This document shows, in pieces, positions 13,801 to 57,720 of a DNA stretch of 64,000 bases. Source of the stretch: a virus. The stretch's first letter is position 1; every line of letters starts with the position of its first letter. The notes beneath the pieces are model-generated. The model did no database searches. It saw only the letters and a program-made list of their open reading frames with translations, and was not told the origin of the DNA. The stretch lies in the IMG/VR virus record IMGVR_UViG_3300024955_000001, positions 1 to 64,000 of that record, one strand, 5' to 3'. A program made the translations under genes and the position numbers.

Positions 13801-16800
13801 ATGGGCGTGCCCGTCAGGAAGGTGACGCTGCCCGTAGGCTGCTCGCGCAGCACGCGCACCTTGTTGTAAAGGTCGTTGGCCTTGCGCGATCCGGTCTTGT
13901 CGCCCATGCCACGCACACCCGTCAGGTTGGACGAGTAGTAGAGGTTCTTGAACTCGTGGGCTTCGTCCACGGTCAGGTCATCCACGCCCAGCTGCTCAAA
14001 GGTCAGCAGGCGGTCGCGCACGCCCTCTGCCAGGCGATCCATGCGGGCCTGAATCTTCTCGGCCAGGCGCTCGGCCTCCTTCACATTGAAGGGCTTGCGG
14101 CGCCCGTTGTCGGTACCGTCCTCGCGGGCCTGCTCCCAGGCGTCCTCGATGGCTGCCTGTGCCTGAGCCATTTCCAGCTCCAGGTAGCGGCTTTCCGTCT
14201 CCGGCGCAATGCCGATGAAGCCGAAGGACGAATGGGGCACGATCACGATGTCCCAGTCGCCCGTGGCGATCTTGCCGAACAGGCGGCGGCGGCGCTTGGC
14301 CTCGAAATCCTTCTTGCCAGCGGCCAGCACCTTGGCGCCAGGGTACAGGCGGTACACATCGGCCGCCCACTGCTCCACCAGGTGGTTGGGCACAGCCACC
14401 ATGGGCTTGCGGGACAGGCCCATGCGGCGGCGCTCCATCGCGCGGGCGATGGCCGTGAAGGTCTTGCCGGCCCCCACGGCATGATCGACCAGCATGAAGC
14501 GCTCGTAGATGCCGCGCCAGATGGCATTCATTTGGTGGCGGCGCATCTTGAGGATGGCGTCCGGCACCTTACCGGGCAGCTGCAGGTGCTGGCCGTTGAA
14601 CTGGCGCACCACGCGGGTGTTGAACTTCTCGTTGAACACGTCCACCAGGCGCTGGCGGCGCTCGCCGTTCTTGAAAACCCAGTCGCCAAACTCGGCCTCG
14701 ATCTCGCGCGCCTTGAGCCCGGCCAGGGCGGTGCGCTCCTTGTCGATGTAGGTGTTGCCGTCCGCGTCGCGGGCGGTGACGGTCACGGCCTTGCTGTTCA
14801 GGATGCGGGTGATGATGTAGTCAGCTGGCGCACCCTCGCTGCTCCAGTTGGACATGCTGGTGCGCTCGGCGCCATCCACGCTGACACTGAAACTGTTGGT
14901 CAGGGCCGAAAAGCTCACCCGCGCCTTGCCCCCCACCAGATGGCGCACGAAATCTGCATAGATCTCAGGGGGCACCCAGGTGGCGCCCATGGTCACGGCC
15001 ACGTTCTCTGCGGTCCAGTCTGCGGGAATGATCTTTTCCAACGCCTCGGCGTTCTTGGTCATGCCAGCGGCGCGCGCTGCGTTCAGCTTGCGCTTGACCA
15101 TGCCCGACAGGTAGGCGTCGGCCGTTTCCCACTGCCCCGTTTCAGGGTCTTTGAACACCAGCGGGTCGGCACCCTGCTGCAGCTGCTCGCCGGCCTGCTC
15201 TGGGCTGACGCCCAGCAGGTTGGCGATGCGCTCCATGTCCACGCGCCCAGATTCCGCCAGGGTGATTGCCAGGGCATCCGATGGAGTGGCGGCCTTGGTC
15301 GCTGGCTCATATTTGGGCACCACGCGCTCACGCAGGATAGGCGCTGGCGTGGCCTTCTCCTTCTGCGCCTCCAGCCCGGAGCGCGCGGCCTGCTCTGCAG
15401 TGCGCTCGGGTTGATAGTCCACCTCCAGCGCGGCTATCAGGCCGCCGTCCGGCATGGTCATCGCCAACTTCATGTTGGTGGAGCGCCCCACCGGTCCGTT
15501 GGCCTTCACGAATGCCTCGTAGGCAGCGGCCAGGCTCTTGCGGTTGCCCTCCATCACGGCGGGCACGGCGTCGGCGGTTTCCAGCACCAGCTGGCGTTTG
15601 AGCAGATCGCGCAGGCCGACCAGCCCGTTCAGGCGCTTCATGCCCAGCTTGCCAAGGCGCAGCTTTTCGGGCACGTCCTCGGGCTTGGCGTATACCTTGC
15701 GCTCGTACAGGTTCTTGCGCGTGGCCTCGCCCTTGGCGTTGGTCGCCTTGACGTTCTTGCCCTGCTCGTCCAGCACGGGCTCCAGAGAGTACCACTGGCC
15801 CTCCGCGTTCTGGCTCAGGGACTCGTGCCATGGGCTGTTCTCGTCAACATCCTGGTAGGCAAACTCGAAATCGCCCTCGGGTGTTTCGCGCTCAATCACG
15901 CGCTGCAGCTTCCCGTCAGGGGTAGCCTTGATGTGGCCGGCTTCCTCGTTGGCCACGGCAATGCGCAGCGCATCGCTCATGGACTTATGGCGGGATGCAG
16001 TGGCGTCCAGCACATCCTGCTGGAAGTTCTGGATGCCCTCGGGCAGGCGCTGCACTGCCTCGCTCAGTAGCTTGCCCAGCTCGGCCGGGTTGTCCAGGCG
16101 CACGGTAATGTCGGCACCATGCTGCATGGAGCCGGAGCGCTCCATGACGCCCAGGACGTTCGCCGGGTTCTCCGCGAAATAGGCGTTCACGTTCATGGGC
16201 TCGCCGCCCAGCGGATCGGGCACCTTGACCGTTTCGACCCAGGACGGCACCAGCGCGGCGGCGGCGGCGTCCGCGTCCTTCTTGTTGGCCTTGAGCTTGT
16301 TGTATTCCGTGATCGCGGCTTGCATCGCAGCCTGCTCGCCCGCATCCATTTTCTGGAAGATCAGGATGTCAGTCACCACCTCCGTTCGGGCGTTCTCCTT
16401 GAATGCCGTATCTGGCAGGCGGATTGCGGCCACCAGGCGCGCCTGTGCGGCCAGCGCCAAGCGGCTGCTCTTGTCCTGCGCGTCCATCAGGAAGCGCGAT
16501 ACCACCATGGCCTGAATGCCGCCAGGGCGCAGCGCATCCATCCCGGCCCGGAAAAACTGGTTGTGGATCGACACGCCCTGCAGCTCGGGCTTGAACTGGA
16601 AGCGCAGAGACTCGCTGCCGAACGGCGGGTTGCCGATGTTCAGCATGAAAGCGTTGTCGGCCACCGGCACCTTCTGGAAGCCGGAATGCAGGACCGTCGC
16701 CTGCGGATACAGGGCCTGCCCGATGCGCGCGGTCAGGCTGTCGTATTCGACACCCACGAACCGATTGGGCATGTCCTTTGGCGCCAGGCCCAGGAAGTTG

Positions 16801-19800
16801 CCGGAGCCCATCGAGGACTCCAGCACGAGTCCTCCACGGTAGCCCAGGCGGCGCACCATGTCCCACATGGCCGACACCACCGTCTGCGAGGTGTAGTGCG
16901 CGTTGCGGGTCGAACGACGCGCGGCGGTGTATTCCTCTTTGGTCAGCAGCTCGCGCAGTTCCTCACCGCGCGCCGTCCACTTGTCCTTGAACTGGCCGGA
17001 TGCGGGGTCGGGGAAAGCGTTGGCCAGGCCGCCCCAGCCCACATAGCGGGCCAGCATTGCCTGTTCTTCCGGTGTGGCGCGACGATTGGCCGCCTCGATG
17101 GCCTTGAGGGCGCGGATCGCGGCCAGGTTGTCATTGAACTTCTGAACCTCGCCACCCTTGCCCAGGCCCACCTCGTCGGTGATCTGGAAGTCGGCGGCGG
17201 GGATGTTAGGGGCGCTGGCCTCGCCCCCAGGGACAGCTACGCGCCCATCTGCTTGCGGTACTGGCTCTCCAGTTGCGCGAGTTCCTTGCGCTCCCACGGC
17301 TCCAGCTCGGCCTCGGGCTCGGGTTTTAGGAGCACGTACTGGCTCAGGGCCACTTCCTCCGCTTCGTGCTGGCGAAAGCCCTGCTCCATCAGCGACAGCA
17401 CTTCCTGCTGCGCCTGCTTGCCCGCTGTCTGCAGCGCCTGCTCCAGCTCCCCGCTCGCCTTCAGCGCGGCTACCTTCTTGGGCAGCCACTGCGTCCAGTG
17501 CTTGCGGGCTCTCGCTTCGTACAGTTGTGCGCTCATCGCTGGGGTTCTCCTGCTGTGCATTATCGGCCTCGGCCTGGTCGGCAGCAACAACCGCCTCGTG
17601 TTGTTCAATCTCGGCCTTCGTCTCCACGTCGATGACCGCGCGCTTGGTATCCGCGCCCGTCTTGCCCCCCGCCATTGCGATGTAGGCGCCCTGCAGGTGA
17701 TCCAGCGTCAGCGCATCGGCCGCGTCGTCGCCCAGGTTTGCGCGGATCTGATCCAAGGCGAACTTGGCCGAATCCTTGAACTTGTGGTATCCCAGGCGGA
17801 ATGCGGCATCCAGCACGCGTGTGAGCACTGGCAGCAGCTTTTGCTCCTGCTCGGGCACGATGTTCATGCGGGTGCCCTTGCCAAGGATGTCGCCCAGGTC
17901 GGCCAGGGCGTTCATCAGATCGGCCTGCGCGCGCACCTGATCGGCGCTGGGCTTCTTGGCAGTAGCAGGGGCCTTATTTGCTACTGAATTGGTAGCTACT
18001 GGAGCTTCTTTGGTGCTGGTACCGGCCTGATTCTCATCAGAAACATTGATGGCTTTTTCTGCGGCTGGCGCTGGGCTGGCAGCAGGCTTGGCCGCCTCGC
18101 TCTCGGCCGCCGTCATGAACTCGGGTTTCAGCTCGCCGCGCGACACCTGCATGCCCTGGCGCGTGGGGCGCAGGGACACGGTTTCCTCGATGCGCACGCC
18201 GCCCTGGGCGTACCAGCGCACGCCGTTCTTGTCCTGGCGGATCATCACGCCGTCAGCGCGGCGGCCGACGATGGTGTTTCCGTCCTTGTCCGCTTCTGAA
18301 TTAATAGCTGCTGGAGCAATAACGGCGCCGGTATTGGGCTGTTCCTTCTCTTTGTCCTGGCGGGTTACGGCGGCGGGGGCTGCGGTGGGCACAGCTTCGC
18401 CCGTAGGTGCCGTGTTGGCGGGGAGAAAAGAACGTTCGCCATTCGCCTTCTCGGCGGTCACAACGCCATCGCGCTCCATGCGATCCATCAGCGCATTGAC
18501 TTCGCCAAAGCCGATGCCCAGCGCAGCCTGAATAGCAGGGCGATTCACAGCGCCGGCGCTGCGCACCAACTCCACAGCCTTTGTGTAGGTCGCATCGTCC
18601 TTAGCGCCGGGCTCCATCGCAACCGCCAGCTTGCGCTGCACATCGCGGTTCAGGTCAGCCCACGCTGCGCGGTGGACGTTCTTGCGCACGATGGGCTTGA
18701 GATCCGCGCGCTGGGCCAGGGCCTGGCGTTCGGCCGTGGGCATGCGCGTCCAAGCATCGCCAGTGCTGGCTACGCGCTGAGCAGGGCCTTCTGCTTGCGG
18801 CGCAGCTTGCGCGCTTGGCGCTGGCGCCGTTTGCGCTCCAGGGTTCGCAGTCGGGGCGCCATCGGTCAGGCCTGCAGCGGCTGCTTGCTGCGCGCCATTC
18901 GCGCCTGGGCGTCCTTGAGCATCTGGTGCTCCACGTGCGACTGCTGGCGCTGCTCCGACTTGCGACGGTTGCGCGCTACCTTGCTGGGCTTGGGCGGCTT
19001 GAGGGCCATTGCGGTTTCCTTCTGTGGTTGCGGGAATGGTCAGATCAGCCGGCACTGGACCAGCGTCTTCGGTGAGGGAGGCAAAAGCGGCATCGGCGCG
19101 CTCTGCGCCGGGCACGCTGGCGCGCTGCTCTGCATCCAGCTCGGCCTGCAGCTCCTGCTGCTCACGCAGCGCACGGCGGCGGCCCAGCTCCTGGGCCAGT
19201 TGCATGCGGACCTCGCGCGACTGAGCGCCGCGGAAGGTGTTGGACAACTGGGCATCGCTCCAGCTCTCCATGGGCGAGCCCGGCGAAATTTCGCCAGTTT
19301 CCTGGTTTACGCCTTGCTGCGTGAGCGCTGGCTGCTCTTGTTTTTGATTGCCTTGGGCAGTTTTTTTGCCTTGCTTTTGCGCTACCTCGGCAGCCTGGGC
19401 CAGCGCAGCGGCCTGCTGCACTTGGTCTGAGGCGCCGGTATCGACAGCCAGCGCGGCACTGGCCGACAGTGGGCCGGCAGCAGGGTCCAAGCCCATGGCC
19501 ACGGAGCGCGGCACGGTCGCACCGGTGGACTGGTAAATCTCATCGTCAGGGCTTTGCACGGCGCGCGAGGCATCCATGGCAGCCTGGCGCTGCTCGGCGG
19601 CCTGGGCCTGCTGCTGCGCCAGCGCTGCCGCGCCATCGGGAGGCGCGGTCTGGGGCACGTTGGGATCGCCTTGCTCCTGCTGCTGCAGCGCCGCCAGTTG
19701 GGCGGCAAATGCCTGCTGGATACGCTCCATGCCGAGGTTGGGCGGCGCGGCGCCGGCGTCAGTGGGTGCGGCACCAGGTTGCTCGGAAGGCGACGCACCT

Positions 19801-20798
19801 GGTTCCGCTTTCGGCTGCTTGAAGCCGTGATAGCCGGAAGCTGCGCCACCCATGGCGCCGCCCGACAGCACGCCCATGACCGCTGCGGAATCCACATCCG
19901 TCAGCCAGTCCTTGCCAAGCGCCACGTTCTGGAAGATTTGCTCGGCCACGGACTGCGGCAGCTCTTCCAGGAAACCCTCGGAGATCGCGCCCTCAATCAC
20001 GCGGCGCGGAATGCTCTTGGCAGCCGCTTGCTGCACCAGAGGATTGACGGCGGCGGTAGCGGCATCGTCAGCGTTCTGCTTCGCCATGCCCTTGGTGCCC
20101 TGGGCCAGCATGGTTTCGGCGTCACCGATACCCAACTTGTTGGCCACGCGGCCGCCCAGCACGCCGAAGCCCGCCGTGGCCACGCCGGTTGCCGCTGCGA
20201 GCGCGGCCTGGGTGGGGGTCAGCAGCCCATCGGGAGTTTCCTGGCGGATCTGCTCGGCTGCGGAACCAGCTGCGGTGATGCCTTCGCCGGCCGCGCCCGC
20301 CAATGCAGCACCAGCGGCGCCCATCTGGCCCAGCTTTGTCGCGGCCATGAGTCCTCGCGCAGCGACGCCCCCAGCGCCCATGCTGGGCAACGACTCACCA
20401 ACGGCCGTCGCAATGAGGCTGGGGTTCTGAACGGCTGTAACGGCCTTGTCCACGATGCCATTGGCATCCTGAAACTTGCGTTGCGCCTCCTTGGTAGCGT
20501 CGGAGTGCCAGTCGTTGGCGATTTCCTTGGCCTGCTTGGGGCGAAAGCCCACAGAGCCACCCTCGTTCTCCAGGAACTTGCCCACCTCGCCGCCCGTGGG
20601 AATGTCGGCAATACCAACCAGGGCCTCGGGCACGCCAATGGCGCCCTTGACAGCTGTGGCAGCAACGTCCTTGATGGTGCCGCTCAGCGTACGCTTCGGC
20701 GAATCCGCTGCACCATCGAACTGGTCAAAGTAGTTCTTTCCTTTGCCACCCGGGCCGGCAGTTGAGGGGTCGAATTGATCAAAGAAGTTGGAGCTCAT
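7893..20798 (-). CDS. Giant (4,301-codon) polyvalent virion/ejection protein with N6-adenine methyltransferase, SNF2/DEAD-like helicase, zincin-like and PLxRFG modules (DarB-like class)
   Basis: Uninterrupted ORF. Motifs in order from the N-terminus:
- N-terminal FDQFD x2 and Gly-zipper region.
- FtsK-gamma-like winged helix, 18423-18599.
- MTase motif IV NPPF, 16620-16631 (LNIGNPPFG).
- Walker A AVGAGKT, about 14460-14480.
- DEAH, 13956-13967.
- QREGRVIRQGN, 12747-12779.
- YHEVLGHH, 11163-11183.
- PLSRFG, 9885-9902.
- C-terminal hydrophobic segments. Confidence 0.85.
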   Translation of the reverse strand: MSSNFFDQFDPSTAGPGGKGKNYFDQFDGAADSPKRTLSGTIKDVAATAVKGAIGVPEALVGIADIPTGGEVGKFLENEGGSVGFRPKQAKEIANDWHSDATKEAQRKFQDANGIVDKAVTAVQNPSLIATAVGESLPSMGAGGVAARGLMAATKLGQMGAAGAALAGAAGEGITAAGSAAEQIRQETPDGLLTPTQAALAAATGVATAGFGVLGGRVANKLGIGDAETMLAQGTKGMAKQNADDAATAAVNPLVQQAAAKSIPRRVIEGAISEGFLEELPQSVAEQIFQNVALGKDWLTDVDSAAVMGVLSGGAMGGAASGYHGFKQPKAEPGASPSEQPGAAPTDAGAAPPNLGMERIQQAFAAQLAALQQQEQGDPNVPQTAPPDGAAALAQQQAQAAEQRQAAMDASRAVQSPDDEIYQSTGATVPRSVAMGLDPAAGPLSASAALAVDTGASDQVQQAAALAQAAEVAQKQGKKTAQGNQKQEQPALTQQGVNQETGEISPGSPMESWSDAQLSNTFRGAQSREVRMQLAQELGRRRALREQQELQAELDAEQRASVPGAERADAAFASLTEDAGPVPADLTIPATTEGNRNGPQAAQAQQGSAQPSQVGAAPAVARGAPDAQGRPGANGAQQAAAAGLTDGAPTANPGAQTAPAPSAQAAPQAEGPAQRVASTGDAWTRMPTAERQALAQRADLKPIVRKNVHRAAWADLNRDVQRKLAVAMEPGAKDDATYTKAVELVRSAGAVNRPAIQAALGIGFGEVNALMDRMERDGVVTAEKANGERSFLPANTAPTGEAVPTAAPAAVTRQDKEKEQPNTGAVIAPAAINSEADKDGNTIVGRRADGVMIRQDKNGVRWYAQGGVRIEETVSLRPTRQGMQVSRGELKPEFMTAAESEAAKPAASPAPAAEKAINVSDENQAGTSTKEAPVATNSVANKAPATAKKPSADQVRAQADLMNALADLGDILGKGTRMNIVPEQEQKLLPVLTRVLDAAFRLGYHKFKDSAKFALDQIRANLGDDAADALTLDHLQGAYIAMAGGKTGADTKRAVIDVETKAEIEQHEAVVAADQAEADNAQQENPSDERTTVRSESPQALDAVAAQEGSRAEGERGAGAGAADSGQAGAAGSAVADGAGLSPARSGGSGPEPVRAPKTRARGRAGAVGAQGTRATGEPVPQADGRVAVPGGEASAPNIPAADFQITDEVGLGKGGEVQKFNDNLAAIRALKAIEAANRRATPEEQAMLARYVGWGGLANAFPDPASGQFKDKWTARGEELRELLTKEEYTAARRSTRNAHYTSQTVVSAMWDMVRRLGYRGGLVLESSMGSGNFLGLAPKDMPNRFVGVEYDSLTARIGQALYPQATVLHSGFQKVPVADNAFMLNIGNPPFGSESLRFQFKPELQGVSIHNQFFRAGMDALRPGGIQAMVVSRFLMDAQDKSSRLALAAQARLVAAIRLPDTAFKENARTEVVTDILIFQKMDAGEQAAMQAAITEYNKLKANKKDADAAAAALVPSWVETVKVPDPLGGEPMNVNAYFAENPANVLGVMERSGSMQHGADITVRLDNPAELGKLLSEAVQRLPEGIQNFQQDVLDATASRHKSMSDALRIAVANEEAGHIKATPDGKLQRVIERETPEGDFEFAYQDVDENSPWHESLSQNAEGQWYSLEPVLDEQGKNVKATNAKGEATRKNLYERKVYAKPEDVPEKLRLGKLGMKRLNGLVGLRDLLKRQLVLETADAVPAVMEGNRKSLAAAYEAFVKANGPVGRSTNMKLAMTMPDGGLIAALEVDYQPERTAEQAARSGLEAQKEKATPAPILRERVVPKYEPATKAATPSDALAITLAESGRVDMERIANLLGVSPEQAGEQLQQGADPLVFKDPETGQWETADAYLSGMVKRKLNAARAAGMTKNAEALEKIIPADWTAENVAVTMGATWVPPEIYADFVRHLVGGKARVSFSALTNSFSVSVDGAERTSMSNWSSEGAPADYIITRILNSKAVTVTARDADGNTYIDKERTALAGLKAREIEAEFGDWVFKNGERRQRLVDVFNEKFNTRVVRQFNGQHLQLPGKVPDAILKMRRHQMNAIWRGIYERFMLVDHAVGAGKTFTAIARAMERRRMGLSRKPMVAVPNHLVEQWAADVYRLYPGAKVLAAGKKDFEAKRRRRLFGKIATGDWDIVIVPHSSFGFIGIAPETESRYLELEMAQAQAAIEDAWEQAREDGTDNGRRKPFNVKEAERLAEKIQARMDRLAEGVRDRLLTFEQLGVDDLTVDEAHEFKNLYYSSNLTGVRGMGDKTGSRKANDLYNKVRVLREQPTGSVTFLTGTPISNSAVEMFTMLRYLAADSLDDMGLSHFDAFRAQFVEATPAFEPTESGRLKQVTRLGRTWSNMRSLMDLYYQVTDAVSLDDIKRFYAEDNPGREFPVPKVAGGKDRNLVAIKPTPAQEQGLKDVMEGFDGLDGIEDPYERNAERLRLMDRARKLSLDIRAVDPRSTSTEEGGKLQVVSENIKRIYDKWDADQGTQLVFLDRSVPKSKGDDAIIKAYDDLVAKRDAALRADDQEAFDEAQEALDRYDPREIAELRQAQTSPWSAYQQIKDNLIATGIPANEIRFVQEANNDEQKAALFDSVNGGKVRVLIGSTPRMGAGTNVQQRAVALHHVDVTWKPSDIEQREGRVIRQGNLFSTPPTAEKPNPMFRADFEVEILAYATERTVDAKMWDLNATKLRTINGIRKYDGAFSMEFDDEEAVGMAEMAALASGNPLLLERVKTESEITTLELQERAFRRRMFGIEDAVESAERAIERNPGRIADERAKKEKANAAMEAADARKAERRVTIEGKEYDNLRDAMTAVNEAIEQQQGGKPTARYSISVDGARLTNKDGIDTAIGAALGDSSLFDVTIDGRLIAQHTVAARELAAKFNELTKGIQPGDSRTATVGSMLGYDLVLDAQARETGKGGGQIDASVSLVDADGATVTSRGLNSFAVNQSVVPANVRNLVTDLFDDIGRLANSSTDYLERQLARAKAELPALRQQLNQTFPKAGELTAKRERLRELVGLLEGKAQSAAPTTPEESEAGDGTAGDAPAFRREAPAGVAQADDFDMASYLAAMDQPSVYSDAARRQAVASVSGTVDAIRAAWGPNAPEVVVAFDMQDQRIPEAARNADLRQRSGGARGAPEGFYYRGKAYLMASRLNTPNDAARVLYHEVLGHHGLRGKFGRDLDQVLNQLATMRKAEVAAKMREYGLRGVNSLSVREAAEEVLAEMAEKTPQLPFVQRAISAIRNFLRQHVPGFQSLRLTDNDIIQAYILPARGWVVRGGPGGGPRGGQPVMSRASDAGSADPDIRFSRSSTADLKDSALAQIHQTLTHPGKVSLWDKTVGTMRNLAERSPVFKPVYEAAQRFIDDVSMLGNDAADRAPRLLPRVETLADLKKKPITAADNQAVAKPLFEGTLLWARDVDGTPVTTEALNAKYRNTTPDEKAQILLRTGKIQEQMLKAWRGLPVDQYNTIINNKFDSTILKPGVIWSEKELKDLFSLNAQQVSLYQEARAAIDRSLDMTARADMLRAMGAGYADLREAVLAQATVEDAMVLITDTLQAEARESPDQADRILSLNNAVVKSYERARALMEAGYAPLSRFGRYTVDVVGKDGTREYFGMFESMYESNKMKAAMEKEFPGATVTQGTMSDEAFKLFQGITPESLEHFGQMLGLSGEGTDPKDKAFQAYLQLAKNNHSALKRLIHRKGISGYSEDVGRVLASFVYSNARLAAGGLNAGTLETAIEGIPKEQGELRDVAMGLRSYIQDPQEEGQAVRGMLFAQYLGGSVASAMVNMTQPFQITMPWLSQFGGMRSAASHLAAAVRDMTRRSGYEPDLAKALQTAEAEGIVSPQEIHQLMAQARGAGSLRTGDGTKLGDARAAAANNWERVKVAWGQPFALAEQFNRRSTFIAAYRIAKEQGMADPAKFAERAVQETQFVYSKANKPKWARGTIGGTLFTFKTYSVSYLELMHRMWTQGGPEGKRAVGWAVAMLLLMGGAGGLPFMEDAEDLIDGAGQLMGYNISTKHWRKQALRDVVGKELADFMEQGVSGLPGAPIDVSGRLGMGNLIPGTGLLLSKQNRERDLLEVAGPAGDLVARGFTGARKLLTGDVAGAALEVSPAAVRNLAKGIDMGTSGIYKDAKGYKVIDTTLDEAIAKAIGFQPKPVAEVQEANSFMQRSKSFYIQTSNDIKAQWAQAVFEKDDDALQRVRDRLAAWNRNNPDQPIVVKIPDVMKRVREMGKDRTARIADTAPKALRQQMRDMARENG
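17237..17536 (-). CDS. Embedded 99-codon ORF in the +1 frame of the giant gene
   Basis: ATG 17536 with AGGAG at 17547-17551; TAG at 17237-17239. Product MSAQLYEARARKHWTQWLPKKVAALKASGELEQALQTAGKQAQQEVLSLMEQGFRQHEAEEVALSQYVLLKPEPEAELEPWERKELAQLESQYRKQMGA. Hand-counted GC3 is about 86% in this frame versus about 37% in the giant frame over the same 300 nt. Confidence 0.6.
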   Translation of the reverse strand: MSAQLYEARARKHWTQWLPKKVAALKASGELEQALQTAGKQAQQEVLSLMEQGFRQHEAEEVALSQYVLLKPEPEAELEPWERKELAQLESQYRKQMGA

Positions 20799-29328: not shown

Positions 29329-30512
29329 GGAAGGCTCCCCAGAACAATGCGGCCAAAGCGGCCGCGTCCGACGACAGGAAATGCGCGATAGGTCCAGCGC
29401 CCAGTCACAGCGCCCAGCTGACCACCACCAAACCCGCTGACCTCGTGCGATGAGCTGGCAAAGGCCCGTGGCTTGCCCAATGCACCGCCAGAGAACCCCG
29501 CTACGGGCTGGATCAGGACGGCGGTAGGCCGCCCCACGGCACCACGGTGCACGGGCTTGACGGCGCCCGCCATCGCCAGGCCGACAACACCAAAGGCGCC
29601 CGCCTGCAGTCCCTGCACTGGCAGGATCTGCGCAACCCGCACGGGGCCGAACGAGCCACTGCGCAGGCCTGTGACTTCGGGCTCTACCACGGCCGACATA
29701 GCCACAGCGCCAAAAGCACTGCCACGAATTCCCGCCACATAGCCCGCCTGGTTGGTGGGTCCGGTCACGCCACCGGGGACCGAGATCCAGCCGAAGCGGC
29801 CAGTCTTGAATCCCCGCACATTGGCGCCCTGGTTGGTGCGCAGCACCACGCGGCCAAATGCTGATGCGGCCTGCAGCCCAGACACATCGCCCTTTTGCAC
29901 CAGGCGCGGGCTGCCAAAGCTGGCCGACTTGAACCCTGAAATGATGGGCGGATAGTCAATGGTCGGCGTGCCCAGGGCCGCGCTCTTGAAGCCCGTCACC
30001 AGCAGCACCGGGTCAGACGATCCGAAGCCCGCTTCATAGCCTGCGGGAACCGTGCCCACAAAGGCCGATCCGCCAAAATTGGCAGTGATCTGCACCGGAC
30101 CGGATGCGTCCACCTGAGCGATGCACGGCCCCCAAGCTGGCGGCAGGCCCGGGTCGCGGGCCACGCTGGTCAGCGTTTTCCACACCGTGCCATTGCGAGT
30201 CACTACCAGGGTGCCGGCAGCCACATCAAAAGCAAAGCCCAGCACATCCCCCTCATCGAGGGTGCTGACACTGCCGGACCAAAACAGGCCCGACTCGGAG
30301 GCCGAATCGGCATCTACGCCGATCTTCAATGTGGAGCCCGAGGGGAACAGGTCGAGCGTGTATTGCCAATAGAACAGCCCATCATCCCTACCCGCCACGG
30401 TGCGAACACCGTTGGCGTAGTAGTTGGAGGTCGAGTAGATCAGCCCACCGCCTGAGATAGCGGCATTCGGGCCTGCGCCGCTGGCGTCCCAGGTGGTCGG
30501 GGTCAAGGGCAT
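29322..30512 (-). CDS. Virion protein with SPRY/concanavalin-like N-terminus and about 10 short G-[FL]-x-[ST]-x-x-FG repeats
   Basis: N-terminus GLFYWQYTL..LKIGVDA..GDVLGFAFDVAAGTLVVTRNG. Repeats include GFKSAALGTP, GFKSASFGSP, GFKTGRFGW, GIRGSAFGAV, GLRSGSFGPV, GLQAGAFGVV and GFSGGALGKP. Confidence 0.65.
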   Translation of the reverse strand: MPLTPTTWDASGAGPNAAISGGGLIYSTSNYYANGVRTVAGRDDGLFYWQYTLDLFPSGSTLKIGVDADSASESGLFWSGSVSTLDEGDVLGFAFDVAAGTLVVTRNGTVWKTLTSVARDPGLPPAWGPCIAQVDASGPVQITANFGGSAFVGTVPAGYEAGFGSSDPVLLVTGFKSAALGTPTIDYPPIISGFKSASFGSPRLVQKGDVSGLQAASAFGRVVLRTNQGANVRGFKTGRFGWISVPGGVTGPTNQAGYVAGIRGSAFGAVAMSAVVEPEVTGLRSGSFGPVRVAQILPVQGLQAGAFGVVGLAMAGAVKPVHRGAVGRPTAVLIQPVAGFSGGALGKPRAFASSSHEVSGFGGGQLGAVTGRWTYRAFPVVGRGRFGRIVLGSLPC

Positions 30513-30983: not shown

Positions 30984-31679
30984 TCACGGCAGAATCGCCT
31001 CGTTGTGGTGCGGGACATCCTCACGAGTGACGCGGCGCATGTCGCTGTCCGGCATCGGGCCAAAGTACGCGGTGAACGCGCGCTCGGCCTTCTCCGCGCG
31101 CACTGGGTCGTACACCTCGGAATCGGGTACGCTGAAAGCCCGGTGCAGAGCCCACTGAATCAGGTGCTCGTGGTGCGCGGCATGGATCTCGGGGGAAGCG
31201 GTATCGTTGTCGGCGGTCAGCTTCTTGAGAGGAAGGCGGTAGGCCTCAATGGTCAGCGTGCCGTCCTCACCTGGCACCGGCACGATGCGCACCGAAGTGT
31301 CGTTTTGCACCAGGTAGCGCTGCTCATCCCGGGTGTACTGCCAGTCGTCAGCATCGCGCCACTCCGGGTAGTTGGCGTCCAGCCACTCCCGCGACTTGAG
31401 CGAGAACTTGCAAGGGCGCCCACCTGCAGCGGCGGGACGGAAGCCGGTACGCACCAGCTCGTACACCGTGGGGTGCAGCTTGTAGGTATGGCGGCCAGCT
31501 ACGACCGCCACCTCACAAATGGCCGGGTTTGCATCCTCCACCAGCAGGCGGCCACGCACGGCGGCTTGGGCCTGGGCATCGTTCAGCCAGTCCGTGATGT
31601 CTTCGTCAGACCACAGGTACGGCTTCACTTTGTCTTCCGCCAGAACGCGGAAGCGGCGGATCAAATCGGCCAGCGTCAT
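30984..31679 (-). CDS. Head-tail adaptor / head-completion candidate
   Basis: 231-codon ORF in the adaptor position after the capsid genes (MTLADLIRRFRVLAEDKVKPYLWSDEDITDWLNDAQ). Confidence 0.55.
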   Translation of the reverse strand: MTLADLIRRFRVLAEDKVKPYLWSDEDITDWLNDAQAQAAVRGRLLVEDANPAICEVAVVAGRHTYKLHPTVYELVRTGFRPAAAGGRPCKFSLKSREWLDANYPEWRDADDWQYTRDEQRYLVQNDTSVRIVPVPGEDGTLTIEAYRLPLKKLTADNDTASPEIHAAHHEHLIQWALHRAFSVPDSEVYDPVRAEKAERAFTAYFGPMPDSDMRRVTREDVPHHNEAILP

Positions 31680-32143
31680 CAGTTGAGCCCGCCCTGCACC
31701 AGCGCTGTGACCTGGTTGCGCAGGTCATCGGCCTTGTCCTTCATGTCCAGCTTCACGCCGTAGTTCGCCTTGGCGAAGTCCGACAAGGCGTTCTTGGTCA
31801 TGTGCGACACCTCCAGCAGCGTCGCCTCGATCTGCTCGCTGGCCTGCTTCTCGCGCAGCAGCTGCTCGGTGGTTGCCTTTTGGGCCTGGGCCAGTGCAGC
31901 AGCGTTGTCGTCCTTGCTGTCATCGGTCTTAGAGGTCGGCTCCGTGCCCGCCTTGTCGGACTTCTCAGCCTTGGCGGCCTTCTTGGCGACAGCGGGCACG
32001 CGCTTGAACTCCAGGTAGCGCATCAGCAACTTGGCATCCACCTCGGACACCAGCTTTTCCTCGCCCGGCTCCCAAGCGTTACGCATGGGGGTACGGTCGG
32101 TGTACGGGGATGTGCCCTCGTAGCGGATCAACTCAAATTTCAT
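31679..32143 (-). CDS. Hypothetical head-module protein with a Lys/Ala/Asp-rich centre
   Basis: 154-codon ORF with a GGAGG RBS. ATGA coupling downstream. Confidence 0.65.
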   Translation of the reverse strand: MKFELIRYEGTSPYTDRTPMRNAWEPGEEKLVSEVDAKLLMRYLEFKRVPAVAKKAAKAEKSDKAGTEPTSKTDDSKDDNAAALAQAQKATTEQLLREKQASEQIEATLLEVSHMTKNALSDFAKANYGVKLDMKDKADDLRNQVTALVQGGLN

Positions 32144-49874: not shown

Positions 49875-50147
49875 TTACGCGGCCTCCTTCGCTTGTGTGG
49901 CGGCTCCGTTGCGCAAGTACGCCCAATCGACATCAGGGTGCAAGCGCTCGCACTGAACTCCGGTCAGGCGCTCAATGAACGGGCACATTTCTGCTGGCGC
50001 TCGCTGATCGCGGTTGACCCAGTTCCAAACCCGAGCCTGGGAAACCGGGCTGGGCGCCAGTGCTGACAGCTTTTCGGCCAGCGCAGATTGACCGCCAGCG
50101 AGCTTCACCGCTTCGATCAATGCATCAACAGGTGTTGTGTTACTCAT
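49875..50147 (-). CDS. cro: Cro/YdaS-like HTH repressor
   Basis: AVKLAGGQSALAEKLSALAPSPVSQARVWNWVNR. Divergent from cI. Confidence 0.75.
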   Translation of the reverse strand: MSNTTPVDALIEAVKLAGGQSALAEKLSALAPSPVSQARVWNWVNRDQRAPAEMCPFIERLTGVQCERLHPDVDWAYLRNGAATQAKEAA

Positions 50148-50203
50148 CCCTTGAGAATAACACTTGTTGATTTAGGCATCAACCCTTGTTTTCAACATTT
50201 GTT
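50125..50203. promoter_or_regulatory. OR-like operator cluster: four TCAAC-N3-TGTT sites
   Basis: Sites at 50125-50136, 50159-50170 (reverse orientation), 50179-50190 and 50192-50203. Confidence 0.6.
50154..50182 (-). promoter_or_regulatory. PR-like promoter (TTGATG-17-TATTCT) giving an essentially leaderless cro mRNA
   Basis: -35 at 50177-50182 and -10 at 50154-50159. Only 6 nt separate the -10 from ATG 50147. Confidence 0.5.
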
Positions 50204-50216
50204 TTAGGCTAGAGCA

Positions 50217-50975
50217 ATGAAATTCGGAGAGCGGCTGGATGCAGCCTTAAAACACTTGGGTTGGGGCCCTTCTGACCTTGCGGGCCGCACCTCCGTTGCT
50301 ATGCCGACGATCAGCGCGATAACTACGCGCGGCAGTGACAGGACAAACTACAAGGAGGATCTGATTCGCGGCTTCCCTGCGGACAAGATCAGCCATGAAT
50401 GGCTGCGCTCAGAGTTGGGCAGCATGATCCCCGCTGCCGCGCTGGATTCACAAGGAGTGGCCACCAACATCCTTGCTCCAGCACCAGCACCTCACGAGGC
50501 TCCGTCTGGAGCACCGGGCGCCCCTCCTGATTTGGTCATCGCCGAGTACGATACGGGTGGCGGCATGGACACCACCGGGCGCCTGATGCTGGACGACCAG
50601 CCAGGCATCATCAAGAGTTGGCGCGTGTCTCACGATTGGCTGCGCCTGAATGTTCCATCCCATACTGGCGTTCGCAACCTCTGCATCGTTACTGGCTTTG
50701 GGCCATCCATGCGGCCCATGTTCAACCCCGGCGACCCGCTGCTGGTGGACATTGGCGTGAAGACCGTGACCCACGAGGGCGTATATTTCTTCCGCGTCGG
50801 TGACGAAGGGTTTATCAAAATGATCCAGCGTGTGCCAGACCCTCATGGGGACGGCGTGATGCTGAATATCATTTCCAAGAACCCGGACTACCCCCCTTAC
50901 CCTATGTCACCCAAGAATCCGCATTTCGAGATTTTGGGCAAGGTACTGACGGTGTGGCGCAGCGAACAGTATTGA
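50217..50975 (+). CDS. cI: CI-like repressor, HTH plus S24 (LexA-type) autopeptidase
   Basis: N-terminal HTH. C-terminus VTGFGPSMRPMFNPGDPLLVD..EGFIKMIQR provides the Ser/Lys dyad. Confidence 0.88.
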   Translation: MKFGERLDAALKHLGWGPSDLAGRTSVAMPTISAITTRGSDRTNYKEDLIRGFPADKISHEWLRSELGSMIPAAALDSQGVATNILAPAPAPHEAPSGAPGAPPDLVIAEYDTGGGMDTTGRLMLDDQPGIIKSWRVSHDWLRLNVPSHTGVRNLCIVTGFGPSMRPMFNPGDPLLVDIGVKTVTHEGVYFFRVGDEGFIKMIQRVPDPHGDGVMLNIISKNPDYPPYPMSPKNPHFEILGKVLTVWRSEQY

Positions 50976-51265
50976 GCCTGGCAAAACCGACACTCATGCT
51001 GTTCGCTGTGCTTTGCGCATGGCCACAGATGGCTGGCGCAAGAACAGAGCGCGACCGTTCCCAGGTGCGCGCGTTCCGCGCCGAGCACCCGTGCCCAGCC
51101 ACTGGCCGCACGCGCGGCGCCTGTCCGGGGTGGCATGTGGATCATGTGATTGCGCTATGTGCTGGAGGTGCTGACAGGCCCAACAACATGCAGTGGATCA
51201 CGAGAGAGGACCACCGCTTTAAGACCTTGGTAGATGTGAGAGAGTGCCGAAAAGACCGCCGATAG
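50972..51265 (+). CDS. Small HNH endonuclease with an N-terminal signal peptide, co-oriented with cI
   Basis: TTG 50972 (TTGA overlap with the cI stop) or ATG 50996. Signal LAKPTLMLFAVLCAWPQMAGA. HNH core GWHVDHVIALCAGGADRPNNMQWITREDHRFKT. Confidence 0.7.
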   Translation: MSLAKPTLMLFAVLCAWPQMAGARTERDRSQVRAFRAEHPCPATGRTRGACPGWHVDHVIALCAGGADRPNNMQWITREDHRFKTLVDVRECRKDRR

Positions 51266-51299
51266 GCGCCCAGAGGCCCACAACTCGTTGCCACAACAC

Positions 51300-51322
51300 A
51301 ACCGCCCGTGAGGCGGTTTTTT
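51300..51322 (+). terminator. Rho-independent terminator of the immunity operon
   Basis: AACCGCC-CGTGA-GGCGGTT-TTTTG. Confidence 0.8.
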
Positions 51323-51363
51323 GTTGCCCGTCTGAGCCGATAGTTTCCCGAAATTCAATGAAA

Positions 51364-51415
51364 TCAACGAATGTTAAAAACACTTGTTGACCGCACAATC
51401 AACACTTGTTATATT
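51364..51415 (+). promoter_or_regulatory. PL-like promoter (TTGACC-17-TATATT) overlapped by three TCAAC-N3-TGTT operators
   Basis: -35 at 51387-51392 and -10 at 51410-51415. Operators at 51364-51375, 51379-51390 (reverse orientation) and 51399-51410. Confidence 0.65.
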
Positions 51416-51421
51416 TCGCCT

Positions 51422-51964
51422 ACGCCGTCAACAACGGCTCAGGTGGGTGGATCGGCGCACACCGGAGGCTCTTTCAAAAAATGCACGCCGATGTTGCTGG
51501 CCCCACCTGCGGGGCCTTCGTCCGGCGAAAGAGCACCTTCGGGCATGGGCCGAAGCTATGCGCCGCCGAGATCCGAGGCGGTTCCCAGTCCGCCGAAGCG
51601 CGGTAAACGGGATGGGAACCCCGCAAGGGGCTGACACCACGGAAACGGTGCTGCATGTTGATGCAGCGACACGGCTACCAGATGCCGGGATGCCCTCGCA
51701 AGAGGGCCATCACGCAGGTGGATTGGAGCAATGTGACTCGCCGCAGGATCAAGCGGAAAGAGAGCACCAGCCCACCGTCGTGATGGCGCCGCCATCAATC
51801 CATACGGGCAAAAGCCACTTCACAAACTTTGGACGGTGCGTGAATCCCCCGGCGAGTAGCCCACCCATTCCTCCCTTTGACAACAGAACCAGTGCATGCC
51901 CTGCGGGCAGGTCATGCGCGGGGTTTGTTGCCGCCTGCCCCAGCGGCGTTTGACAAGGAACCAT
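51422..51964 (+). ncRNA. ~540-nt hairpin-rich untranslated leader (candidate cis-antiterminator or structured RNA)
   Basis: No ORF here has convincing codon bias. BoxA-like GCTCTTTCAAAA at 51468-51479. Hairpins:
- 51499-51516.
- 51537-51555.
- 51619-51630 (CCCC-GCAA-GGGG).
- 51651-51666.
- 51692-51707 (GCCCTC-GCAA-GAGGGC).
- 51782-51796.
- 51894-51917. Confidence 0.4.
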
Positions 51965-52384
51965 ATGAAGACCTCCCTGATCGCCTTGGCAGCTGTCGCA
52001 GCCATGGCCATGGCCGCGTGCGGCGACAAAGAAGTGCCGTTCGACCGGCTGGAAGAAGCCCGGCAGACGGCCAAGGCCAATGCCGAGTTCAACGCGGCGC
52101 TCTACAAGGCGCAGAACCCGCGTTTCACCTCGGACTTCACCATCGTGAGCCGCAGCGACGACATGCAATCGCCCAACTGCCCCCAGGGCGACGGCTGGGC
52201 AGAGCTGTCCATCATGCGTGTCGAAGGCAAGCAGGTGGACAAGACGGTGCTGATGTGCTCCACGTTCTCGCAAAGCGTGGGCTGCTACCGCAAGGAAGAC
52301 TTCGACAAGAACACCAACCTTGCGAAGCAAAACGGAACCTGCAATTCGCAAGCGCCCTTCCCCGTCCCCCGCATCGGCAAGTAG
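51965..52384 (+). CDS. Early lipoprotein
   Basis: ORF 51896..52384 trimmed to ATG 51965. Signal MKTSLIALAAVAAMAMAAC, followed by a 120-aa mature domain with 4 Cys. Confidence 0.75.
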   Translation: MKTSLIALAAVAAMAMAACGDKEVPFDRLEEARQTAKANAEFNAALYKAQNPRFTSDFTIVSRSDDMQSPNCPQGDGWAELSIMRVEGKQVDKTVLMCSTFSQSVGCYRKEDFDKNTNLAKQNGTCNSQAPFPVPRIGK

Positions 52385-52387
52385 CCA

Positions 52388-52498
52388 ATGGCGCTCATCA
52401 CCACGCTGATAGGCGGTGGGCTGGCCGCCTGGACGGCTGCGATCTTCTACGCGGCCTATCGCCTTGGCCGGTGGGTGGAGCGCCGCCGCCGCACCTGA
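52388..52498 (+). CDS. 36-aa single-TM ORF following the lipoprotein gene
   Basis: Hand translation: MALITTLIGGGLAAWTAAIFYAAYRLGRWVERRRRT. Starts 3 nt after the lipoprotein stop. No clear RBS. Confidence 0.4.
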   Translation: MALITTLIGGGLAAWTAAIFYAAYRLGRWVERRRRT

Positions 52499-52635: not shown

Positions 52636-52659
52636 AGCCCGCACCACGCGGGCTTTTTT
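52636..52659 (+). terminator. Strong rho-independent terminator after the lipoprotein cassette
   Basis: AGCCCGC-ACCAC-GCGGGCT-TTTTT. A weaker GCAA-loop hairpin with a T6 run lies just upstream, at about 52597-52630. Confidence 0.8.
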
Positions 52660-54616: not shown

Positions 54617-55456
54617 ATGAACGATGCCGCAACTGCAACCGCCGATGGGCTGACATTGACGCCCCTTGAAACGCATCCGACCCCCGTGCAGCAACGCTCC
54701 ACCGAGGTGACCCGCTCTGATTCTTCGGCGCTGACGCAGGCCATCATTTCCGCAGCACACGACCCCAGTGTGAACATAGAGAAGATGGAGAGGCTGCTCG
54801 GAATGCACGAGCACATCGCAGCTCGGGATGCTGAGCAGCAATTCAACGCGGCCATGGCCGCAGCCCAAAGCCGCATGGGCCGTGTGTCTGCAGATGCCGT
54901 CAACCCGCAGACCCGCAGCCTTTACGCCTCCTATGCACAGCTGGACCGCCACATCCGGCCGATCTACACAAGCCATGGGTTTGCCTTGAGCTTTGACCAG
55001 GCCGATGGAGCGCCTGACGGTCATATCCGGGTGCTTTGCTATGTGTCGCACATCGCCGGTCATACCCGCACTTACCGGTGCGACATACCTGCAGATGGCA
55101 AGGGAGCCAAGGGCGGCGACGTGATGACCAAAACGCACGCCGTGGGCTCAGGCAAGACCTACGCCAAACGCTACTTGCTCAAAGACATCTTCAACGTGGC
55201 CGTTGGCGAGGACGACGACGACGGGAACAGCGCTGGCAACGGCCAGGGGCCCGAAAAAACGATGCTGGAGCAGTGGACCGAGAAGGTCAAATCCACCAAG
55301 ACGCGCGCAGTGCTCACCGACGTGATGCGCCAAGCCCGAAAGACCTTCCAGGATGCGAAGGACTTTGAGGGCTACCAGTCGCTGATGCAAATCATCACCC
55401 AGCACGGCAACAGCCTGCCCGCTGACCCGCAACAGACGCGACGTGCCCATGCGTGA
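54617..55456 (+). CDS. erf: ERF-family single-strand annealing protein
   Basis: LYASYAQLDRHIRPIY..GFAL.. and GSGKTYAKRYLLKDIFNVAVGEDDDD. Confidence 0.75.
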   Translation: MNDAATATADGLTLTPLETHPTPVQQRSTEVTRSDSSALTQAIISAAHDPSVNIEKMERLLGMHEHIAARDAEQQFNAAMAAAQSRMGRVSADAVNPQTRSLYASYAQLDRHIRPIYTSHGFALSFDQADGAPDGHIRVLCYVSHIAGHTRTYRCDIPADGKGAKGGDVMTKTHAVGSGKTYAKRYLLKDIFNVAVGEDDDDGNSAGNGQGPEKTMLEQWTEKVKSTKTRAVLTDVMRQARKTFQDAKDFEGYQSLMQIITQHGNSLPADPQQTRRAHA

Positions 55457-56183
55457 CATTCGTTTCCGCTGCTCCAGCCTGGGTCACCTGATGACGGAGC
55501 CGCGCACCAGGGCCGAGGGCGATCTGTCCATGGGCGCGCGCTCCTACATCCGCCAGCTGGTCAAGGAAGAACTGTTCAGCGTGGAGTTTGAGGTGTCCAG
55601 CAAGGAAACCGACAAGGGCATTGCGGTGGAGAACACCGCCATCGCCCTGCTGAACAAGGTGCGCGGCCTGAATCTGGCGAAGAACACCGAGCGCCGCCGC
55701 AACGAGTGGATCACCGGCGAGTGCGACCTGTTCGACGCTCCCCGGCGCCGTGGGCACGACATCAAAGCACCATGGTCCCTCAAGACCTTCCCGGCATGGA
55801 CCGTTGACGCCATCGACCCGCTCTACGACTGGCAAATGCGCGGCTACATGATGCTCTGGGATGCCGACGAGTGGGAAGTGAACTACGTGATGGTGAACAC
55901 CCCGCACGAGCTGATCCGCAACGAGCCCATGGATCAGCACCTGGTTGACCACATCCCGCCACAGCACCGATTGACCACCTGGGTCATTGAACGCGACTTC
56001 CAGAAGGAATCGCTCATCCGCCACCGCTGTGAGGCTGCCAGCGCGTACTACGAGCAGCTGATCCGCGAGTTTGACGACACACACCGCATGGACGTGATCG
56101 ACGTTCAGGCCAAGGTTGTCACCCCACCCCCACAACTTTCCAGCACAGCCGCCTCGCGCGTGCTGCTGCCAACCCTTTTCTGA
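55443..56183 (+). CDS. PD-(D/E)XK exonuclease (YqaJ/lambda-Exo-like)
   Basis: CSSLGHLMTEP.., GIAVENTAIALL, GECDLF..GHDIKAPW. Confidence 0.7.
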   Translation: MPMRDIRFRCSSLGHLMTEPRTRAEGDLSMGARSYIRQLVKEELFSVEFEVSSKETDKGIAVENTAIALLNKVRGLNLAKNTERRRNEWITGECDLFDAPRRRGHDIKAPWSLKTFPAWTVDAIDPLYDWQMRGYMMLWDADEWEVNYVMVNTPHELIRNEPMDQHLVDHIPPQHRLTTWVIERDFQKESLIRHRCEAASAYYEQLIREFDDTHRMDVIDVQAKVVTPPPQLSSTAASRVLLPTLF

Positions 56184-57352: not shown

Positions 57353-57375
57353 AGCCCGCCGCGTGCGGGCTTTCT
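57353..57375 (+). terminator. Terminator-like hairpin (weak U-tract)
   Basis: AGCCCGC-CGCGT-GCGGGCT-TTCT. Confidence 0.5.
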
Positions 57376-57694: not shown

Positions 57695-57720
57695 GGCCCG
57701 CCCTCTGCGGGTCTTTTTTT
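57695..57720 (+). terminator. Rho-independent terminator
   Basis: GGCCCGC-CCTCT-GCGGGTC-TTTTTTT. Confidence 0.75.

Follow-up and report, generated by a model that had tools for sequence, protein, structure and literature searches.

Between the putative early-left promoter PL of a lambdoid-type prophage and the next credible gene 3' of it, a lipoprotein-like open reading frame (ORF) at position 51965, lies a gap of about 540 nucleotides (nt). The prophage is represented by the window, i.e. the whole GC-rich (64%) stretch of 64,000 nt analysed here (positions 1 to 64,000 of IMG/VR virus record IMGVR_UViG_3300024955_000001). What is encoded in this gap, on which strand, and what could it contribute to expression of an early-left operon that contains several intrinsic terminators? 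An earlier interpretation made from the DNA letters alone (the sequence-only reading) had proposed that the entire gap is a hairpin-dense, non-coding leader with a boxA-like element. As detailed below, positions 51468–51707 of the plus strand are a conserved, structured, non-coding leader RNA of ~245 nt with multiple helices, which is the first thing transcribed from PL.

A conserved structured leader RNA

An Rfam scan, which the sequence-only reading had recommended, returned a family that it had missed. RF02917 (Burkholderiales-2) matches 51487–51561 over model positions 1–74, on the minus strand, with 91.1 bits compared to a gathering score of 67.9 (E = 6e-14), and is the sole Rfam match above gathering score in the entire window. 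A permissive scan of 51200–52100 (E up to 10) likewise gave RF02917 only, while scans of the window and 11 loci at gathering threshold returned RF02917 plus an unrelated C4 RNA and a transfer RNA in two loci. The family is typed 'Cis-reg' in Rfam and is an orphan candidate RNA that reportedly stems from the screen of Weinberg et al. 2017. Neither a function nor a phage PL context for Burkholderiales-2/RF02917 was found in the searchable literature, and the main text of the 2017 screen is without discussion of it.

Homologues were collected by an exact-pattern scan with the conserved core, which retrieved 85 viral contigs (84 true), and by the same scan over one genome per species. True matches in the latter were confined to Burkholderiales-type hosts, i.e. 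the genera Comamonas, Delftia, Acidovorax, Ottowia, Giesbergeria, Simplicispira, Alcaligenes, Achromobacter, Bordetella, Kerstersia, Paenalcaligenes, Pigmentiphaga, Pandoraea and Burkholderia; ~28 further pattern matches, all within coding regions of unrelated genomes rich in GC, are due to chance. All checked homologues also match RF02917. The leader RNA family is present in well over 100 Burkholderiales prophages and phages. Among 50,697 records of isolated phages, only nine contain the RNA, namely the mitomycin-induced Bordetella avium phages vB_BaM-IFTN1-9. The nearest relative of the window copy stems from Acidovorax sp. NB1 (locus L134), with 92% identity over 246 nt. In another locus, a C4 antisense RNA (L084:11370-11458; RF01695, 65 bits), an immunity RNA of the P1/P7 type, is located ~5.4 kb from the boxA RNA.

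Conservation far exceeds the 74-nt model of RF02917, which lacks boxA, hairpins C and D as well as the 3' domains (Table 1). Covariation, the other check suggested by the sequence-only reading, is pronounced: in 48 representatives that are <90% identical, the 29 named pairs of the core are 95.3% canonical, and 19 of the 29 display compensatory changes. In 500 shuffles such values were never attained, and pairing fell to 30–50% when the partners were shifted by 1–3 columns. A covariance model of the core (R1, 138 positions) scores 133.4 bits over window positions 51467–51610. After boxA, the RNA forms a 40-nt bipartite hairpin with conserved internal loops (hairpin A), which corresponds in reverse complement to the 3' half of RF02917. 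Compensatory changes are found at all six variable pairs of its inner stem; the invariance of its loops is partly imposed by the search pattern. In the region of hairpin B (helices 3 and 4), seven of eight pairs show such changes. Hairpin C is closed by a G-U pair in 86 of 100 sequences, with covarying interior pairs, and its loop (CCCU, CUCU or CUCC) may in addition form 3–4 base pairs with a segment ~40 nt further 3' (AGGG, AGAG or GGAG). This pairing is suggestive; it alone stood out in a blind covariation scan for tertiary pairs that was otherwise too noisy from phylogenetic correlation. Hairpin D (helix 7) is paired in 98.6% of cases, with CCGC/GCGG alternating with CCGU/ACGG.

Downstream of hairpin D, the family divides into two types of 3' domain, of which the window carries the rarer one, in common with L059, L134, L112, L115, the L024 group and L104. 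Helices E–G of this type are paired in 98.9% of cells across 12 sequences, with three compensatory pairs, as compared to 22–52% in slid controls. Helix H is represented in relatives by counterparts of different sequence, for example CCCCUGGC-UUCG-GCCAGGG and CCAUUC-AACC-GAAUGG. One subgroup (L024, L028, L030, L049, L104 and L143) harbors a conserved GC-rich insertion of ~130 nt (GGGAAGGAACUGCGGGCGGGAUGCCC...) between hairpin D and helix E, at the site of the 12-nt CCCC-GCAA-GGGG hairpin of the window, which looks like a modular expansion of the leader RNA. A further peculiarity is the hexamer AUGUUG, which is part of the invariant internal loop of hairpin A (51490–51498, GAUGUUGCU) and recurs around the loop of helix F (51655–51663, CAUGUUGAUG). 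Every window-type relative has kept this repeat, which could represent a recognition element present twice.

Compared with shuffled sequences, 51463–51712 folds with z = -2.46 (4 of 200 shuffles were as good), while 51713–51964 is no better than its shuffles (z = -1.1). As only the first half beats shuffles, hairpin density over the full 540 nt is by itself not beyond chance. Of the structured leader originally proposed, the part up to 51707 is therefore substantiated, being conserved and covarying among ~100 homologues, and the remainder (51713–51964), which is also unconserved, is not supported. Within 51708–51964, homology was found only for 51882–52000, which is 97% identical to L062:3787-3905 and runs into the lipoprotein gene. 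Since L062 shares this moron but has the other type of 3' domain, the boundary between RNA and moron is a mosaic recombination joint.

Individual motifs of the sequence-only reading fared differently. The two hairpins with GCAA loops at 51619–51630 and 51692–51707 exist, but the proposed analogy of the latter to boxB is not supported. Both belong to the sequence-variable helices of the family and are no conserved recognition sites; what is conserved 3' of boxA is the 40-nt hairpin A. Likewise, both copies of the duplicated motif are present (GAAAGAGCACC at 51527–51537 and GAAAGAGAGCACC at 51756–51768), the second one in unconserved DNA.

The boxA element

The boxA-like sequence noted previously (GCTCTTTCAAAA, 51468–51479) proved to be a family trait. 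In the window, GCUCUUUCAAAA deviates at two positions from the boxA consensus (CGCUCUUUAACAA-like). With at most three mismatches to GCTCTTTAACAA, boxA is found in 78 of 101 distinct homologues, 6–9 nt 5' of hairpin A; a match this good was not attained in any control window. Most homologues have a canonical boxA, CGCUCUUUAACAA, immediately 5' of hairpin A on the plus strand. Depending on the locus, 28 to 171 nt separate the -10 element from hairpin A. As spacing to hairpin A is fixed and the distance to the promoter varies by more than 100 nt, boxA is bound to the RNA structure rather than to promoter DNA. The 23 of 101 members without boxA (among them L003, L006, L010, L044, L089 and L113; L030, L049, L056, L069 and L076) instead contain CCCUCUCCUGAAUUCCC or CAGCUCUCGCACUGCAC 25 nt 5' of hairpin A, each of which is kept within its subgroup.

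Strand and coding potential

That the RNA lies on the plus strand of the window, opposite to the Rfam model, follows from five independent lines of evidence. boxA can be read on this strand only. In the helices, G-U/U-G pairs on the plus strand outnumber A-C/C-A combinations by 136 to 10; they include a U-G in 20 of 100 sequences at one position of hairpin A and the closing pair of hairpin C, which on the minus strand would become a C-A mismatch. RNAalifold predicts -24.0 kcal/mol for the sense and -17.2 kcal/mol for the antisense orientation. Sigma70-like promoters are found within 192 nt upstream of the RNA in sense orientation in 33 of 69 distinct loci (19 of them matching at least 10 of 12 positions), and in antisense orientation in one of 69; L023, L058, L007 and L009 show textbook promoters inside palindromic operators. 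Finally, a co-directional cI-like (S24) repressor gene lies 1–4 kb upstream in 48 loci, 58 loci having the at least 2.5 kb of upstream DNA considered for this count, and a divergent cro-like gene was found in 25 loci.

Could the Rfam orientation nevertheless be correct, with a functional minus-strand RNA that is antisense to the PL leader, akin to OOP or sar, or with a minus-strand cis-regulatory element? RF02917 was modelled in this orientation, and the sole further point in its favor is an invariant G-U pair that closes the outer stem at the base of hairpin A and reads A-C on the plus strand. Because this pair never varies, it is uninformative on strand. Besides the five lines above, there is no minus-strand promoter within 49.5–59 kb of the window and no minus-strand gene downstream, which leaves this option very improbable. 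As the strand mismatch is family-wide, it concerns the orientation of the RF02917 model and not membership of the window copy. Taken together, the data indicate that RF02917 was modelled on the wrong strand and truncated.

The leader region is not protein-coding. Even less credence than to a minus-strand RNA can be given to the idea that the gap encodes small proteins (51481–51606, 51655–51783 or the 189-codon ORF 51384–51953), with hairpins being incidental to GC-rich DNA. The ORFs do exist, and many homologues are grouped by ORF clustering because the ATG within the invariant GCCGAUGUUGCU opens an ORF. However, column entropy is flat over the codon positions (0.66, 0.56 and 0.67), ORFs from the conserved ATG extend over 4 to >99 amino acids, and the inner part of hairpin A is 15–21 nt long, depending on the homologue. 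Nor do homologues agree in the reading frame of the conserved block that follows (53, 17 and 13 sequences in the three frames), and variation is dominated by compensatory base-pair changes. The 189-codon ORF, already suspected to be non-coding, is likewise not coding. The two small ORFs that had been reserved as candidates for N-like proteins are not conserved and gave no match to Pfam. The 42-amino-acid basic one (51655–51783) starts in the loop of conserved helix F and has its Arg/Lys tail in unconserved DNA; L059 and L134, two relatives with 92% identity, lack this tail. In OM293951.1 and other vB_BaM-IFTN records, a coding sequence for a 'hypothetical protein' is annotated over the RNA (e.g. 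31589–31787), which is probably a false gene call. Both the minus-strand and the coding interpretation are effectively excluded.

Genomic context

The RNA follows a sigma70-like promoter (TTGACC-17-TATATT, 51387–51415) that agrees with the consensus at 10 of 12 positions and is the sole such site within 49.5–59 kb. Allowing at most one mismatch, the 10-mer AACACTTGTT occurs at eight sites versus 1.3 expected, and six of these cluster in the cro-cI region (50127–50203) and at the PL promoter. Because the 10-mer is common to PL and the PR/PRM region, the promoter is regarded as the repressor-controlled PL equivalent, in agreement with its initial assignment as PL-like. The 70-nt cro-cI intergenic region (50127–50203) itself comprises four copies with zero or one mismatch, in a tripartite-operator-like arrangement that matches the two PL copies.

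Table 1. Leader RNA and neighboring features of the window.
Feature	Position	Strand	Remarks
cro-like gene	49875–50147	-	first gene of long minus-strand operon
cI/S24-type repressor gene	50217–50975	+	PHROG 4, E = 4e-25
small HNH ORF	50954–51265	+	after cI; cI-HNH unit closed by intrinsic terminator
intrinsic terminator of cI-HNH unit	51300–51322	+	just 5' of PL; stem AACCGCC-CGTGA-GGCGGTT, then TTTTGTTG
PL-like sigma70 promoter	51379–51415 (including operator-like repeats)	+	-35 TTGACC 51387–51392, 17-nt spacer, -10 TATATT 51410–51415
operator-like 10-mer AACACTTGTT at PL	51379–51388 and 51401–51410		two copies
boxA GCUCUUUCAAAA	51468–51479	+	family consensus G-N-U-C-U-U-U-A-A-C/A-A-A
hairpin A	51487–51526	+	outer stem GCCG/CGGC; internal loops AUGUUGCU / UUCGUC; inner 6-bp stem GGCCCC/GGGGCC
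hairpin B	51533–51561	+	outer GCA/UGC, inner UUCGG/CCGAA, loop GCAUGGG; reverse complement of RF02917 5' half
hairpin C	51562–51582	+	GCCGCC/GGCGGU, closing G-U pair; beyond Rfam model
junction CCAGUCC + hairpin D + UAAACGG	51583–51610	+	hairpin D CCGC-CGAAGC-GCGG at 51590–51603; UAAACGG 51604–51610
short hairpin CCCC-GCAA-GGGG	51619–51630	+	relatives: variable insert of 0 to ~130 nt at same site
helix E	51635–38 with 51647–50	+	3' domain
helix F	51651–56 with 51661–66	+	3' domain, loop GUUG
helix G	51672–75 with 51684–87	+	3' domain, loop UACCAGAU
helix H GCCCUC-GCAA-GAGGGC	51692–51707	+	hairpin always at this position, sequence free
unconserved spacer	51708–51964	+	last ~80 nt (51882–51964) part of lipoprotein moron cassette
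lipoprotein-like ORF (signal peptide + lipobox, 139 amino acids) and 36-amino-acid membrane ORF	51965–52498	+	moron-like cassette; no family matches
first strong intrinsic terminator in PL operon	52636–52659	+	ends moron cassette; 5' of ERF/exonuclease genes
ERF	54617–55456		early-left recombination module
exonuclease	55443–56183		early-left recombination module

Further intrinsic terminators of the operon on the plus strand are located at 57695 and 58264; these and the one at 52636 are situated before or among the early-left genes. Together with that at 52636, they account for three of the four previously assigned downstream terminators; the hairpin at 57353 has a weak U-tract only. Across the family, strict intrinsic terminators in the 4 kb downstream of the RNA average 0.79 on the sense and 0.06 on the antisense strand, at scattered positions. 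In most loci, including the window, no terminator separates the RNA from the first gene, which makes the RNA a leader and not a gene of its own. The layout of the window recurs in IFTN8, where a terminator is followed by a promoter as in the window, ~110 nt, the boxA-RNA, hypothetical genes and genes for Ea22, HNH, an antirepressor, exoVIII, RecT and AlpA, with an internal terminator at 30024.

A search with R1 yielded one copy of the RNA in the 64-kb window, one in the complete 44-kb genome of IFTN8 and exactly one per locus in 84 of 85 viral loci. On the PR side of the window, where cro abuts the promoter, no leader, RNA or boxA (by pattern search) was found. Nor is there a conserved downstream protein family: the largest is present in 8–10 of 79 loci, and only the upstream cI and cro families recur. 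These figures are based on clustering, which replaced an ORF census by GC content at third codon positions (GC3) that was unreliable for hosts of lower GC content. In accordance with the initial assessment, an N-like gene was found neither by ORF clustering nor by Pfam or PHROG matches for any ORF of the PL operon, although a very divergent N could escape such profiles.

Eight viral contigs with related cI genes contain no RNA and no boxA within 3 kb downstream; their PL regions are either unreached or unrelated, so that they are uninformative on substitution of the element. In one contig with a related cI gene and no boxA RNA (L155:5450-5870, IMGVR_UViG_3300026531_000005), the PL slot shows a terminator, a TTGACT-17-TGTAAT promoter and an ORF-free leader of ~310 nt before the first gene, without Rfam or R1 match. 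This may be an unrelated leader RNA in the PL slot. Elsewhere in the window, the block of structural genes includes a single ORF of 4301 codons (7893–20798, minus strand) with a gene-like GC3 of 0.81, which would correspond to an unusually large phage protein.

Proposed function and alternatives

Given the conserved boxA, an operon with internal terminators and no N-like gene found, a cis-acting Nus-dependent or put-like antitermination RNA, as put forward by the sequence-only reading, is the best-supported function that we infer from sequence and by analogy. We judge the chances slightly better than even that the leader RNA is a boxA/Nus-assisted processive antitermination signal acting in cis. 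Upon prophage induction, RNA polymerase leaving PL would transcribe boxA, which could then bind host NusB-NusE(S10); in lambda and rrn antitermination, boxA is the loading site for NusB-NusE and is required together with them (PMC2800207, PMC4807359). Hairpins A–D and the 3' domain would fold co-transcriptionally and may contact the elongation complex either directly, similar to put, or via Nus factors. The put RNA of HK022, ~70 nt in size and consisting of two stems with bulges just 3' of PL, needs no protein factors to suppress termination, both intrinsic and Rho-dependent, over a distance of 10 kb or more (PMC9378689). With the leader RNA staying looped to it, the modified polymerase could ignore Rho on the long untranslated leader. 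Conceivably, it would also pass the intrinsic terminators at 52636 (insulating the moron), 57695 and 58264, and this read-through would allow the ERF/exonuclease recombination genes to be expressed, along with further early-left genes.

Several observations weigh against this function. Each phage has a single copy of the RNA, in contrast to the L and R copies of nut and put systems, and 23 of 101 members are devoid of boxA. The RNA comprises at least 245 nt, much more than nut or put function needs. Using strict criteria, a terminator within 4 kb was detected in only 14 of 33 loci, and in some loci (such as L009, L017, L074, L078, L024 and L104) a terminator is located immediately 3' of the RNA, which would fit a discrete small RNA equally well. 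The RNA resembles putL neither in sequence nor in structure, with R1, run with filters off against 27–31 kb of HK022, giving a best score of 2.5 bits (E ~2). Moreover, for every family member the function is one that we infer.

The single copy, the 23% of members that keep the RNA without boxA, its size, with many helices and conserved loops, and the directly following terminators in that subset keep an alternative alive, according to which the RNA itself is the product. It could be a stable trans-acting or protein-sequestering RNA, such as an anti-defence decoy or a regulator of a host factor, that is made first after induction, with boxA merely shielding it from Rho and chaperoning its folding as in rRNA leaders. 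Such action of Nus factors and boxA against Rho on untranslated RNA is established (PMC4807359). Yet, neither a target nor a partner is identifiable, terminators are scattered further down the operon, and the strict siting at the start of the PL operon in every locus suits a cis element and would be unneeded for an RNA acting in trans. We consider this alternative unlikely, albeit one to be taken seriously. More unlikely still appears a protein-dependent nut-type site, in which a small or divergent N-like protein, or another phage or host protein, would bind the internal loop of hairpin A and work with boxA-bound Nus factors. The succession of boxA, a 6–9-nt spacer and a hairpin mimics the boxA-spacer-boxB order, the AUGUUG of hairpins A and F would suit a repeated protein-binding site, and failure to detect an N protein with Pfam and PHROG is weak evidence, as these proteins are short and fast-evolving. 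However, no ORF family adjoining the RNA is conserved, the 42-amino-acid basic ORF is compromised by its start in a conserved hairpin and by a tail that close relatives lack, a short boxB-like hairpin of the GNRA type is missing at any conserved position, and there is no copy on the nutR side.

In summary, an orphan motif can be reinterpreted as part of a leader RNA at PL that is headed by boxA and may add a variety to the processive antitermination signals known so far. A further-reaching proposal, which is tentative and on balance doubtful, would be that Burkholderiales-2, read opposite to its Rfam strand, forms the core of a second class of RNA antiterminators with an evolutionary origin of its own. 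This class would be led by boxA, require no dedicated phage protein, combine Nus loading with direct modification of RNA polymerase and serve the early-left operon only, in lambdoid prophages of Betaproteobacteria. To our knowledge, HK022 put, with its narrow distribution, is essentially the only phage system in which RNA alone brings about processive antitermination. If the proposed function is true, a widespread, unrelated, boxA-linked RNA at the same position would mean that the RNA-only strategy evolved more than once. In any case, an orphan Rfam family can now be assigned its strand, its actual extent, a genomic setting and a function open to testing, with the nine mitomycin-inducible Bordetella avium phages that carry the RNA as an experimental system. 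Annotation is affected as well, as pipelines now label the element on the wrong strand and some phage records place genes for hypothetical proteins over it.

Comparison with known systems

RF02917 shares with the leader RNA the same core (51487–51561, the full 74-position model) and the same taxonomic range, i.e. Burkholderiales, but is modelled on the complementary strand and includes no more than hairpins A and B, while the entire element measures at least 245 nt. In nut sites, boxB follows boxA within a few nt and is a short hairpin (~15 nt) whose loop is GNRA-like; it is conserved as the N-binding site. The leader RNA resembles lambda nut in heading a repressor-controlled early-left transcript with terminators in the downstream operon, and in the succession of a boxA with NusB/NusE consensus, a short fixed spacer and a hairpin. 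Unlike nut, it has no short boxB hairpin, N-like protein or nutR equivalent, and it is ~10 times larger, with ~8 helices.

Like HK022 put, the leader RNA is a structured RNA made after PL with no dedicated protein encoded alongside. In size and shape, put may be compared with hairpins A and B, i.e. two stem-loops with internal loops that together span ~74–75 nt (PMC9378689), although these lie at a variable distance from the -10 element. The leader RNA differs from the Nus-independent put by its boxA, by at least six further conserved helices, by its presence in one copy and by its hosts, which are Betaproteobacteria instead of Enterobacteria. Put RNAs are further characterized by protein-independent binding to the beta' zinc-binding domain of RNA polymerase and by suppression of pausing and termination. 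By eye, CGUCUUUAAAC in putL of HK022 (L158, 28252–28329, minus strand) resembles the family boxA variants GGUCUUUAAAAA, which is probably a coincidence.

CRISPR-array leaders are another group to be considered, as Stringer et al. 2020 reportedly found them to be boxA-led untranslated transcripts. In rrn leaders, too, boxA is located close to the start of a long structured transcript that is not translated, and the Nus complex there blocks Rho and aids folding (PMC4807359). In contrast to both, boxA here heads a phage messenger RNA operon with a conserved structured leader, and it is followed by the hairpins instead of forming part of a boxB-boxA-boxC order. Hence, the leader RNA would act like nut or put while being a member of neither, and, if the proposed function is correct, it would represent a natural hybrid between the Nus-dependent mechanisms of nut and rrn and the RNA-only mechanism of put.

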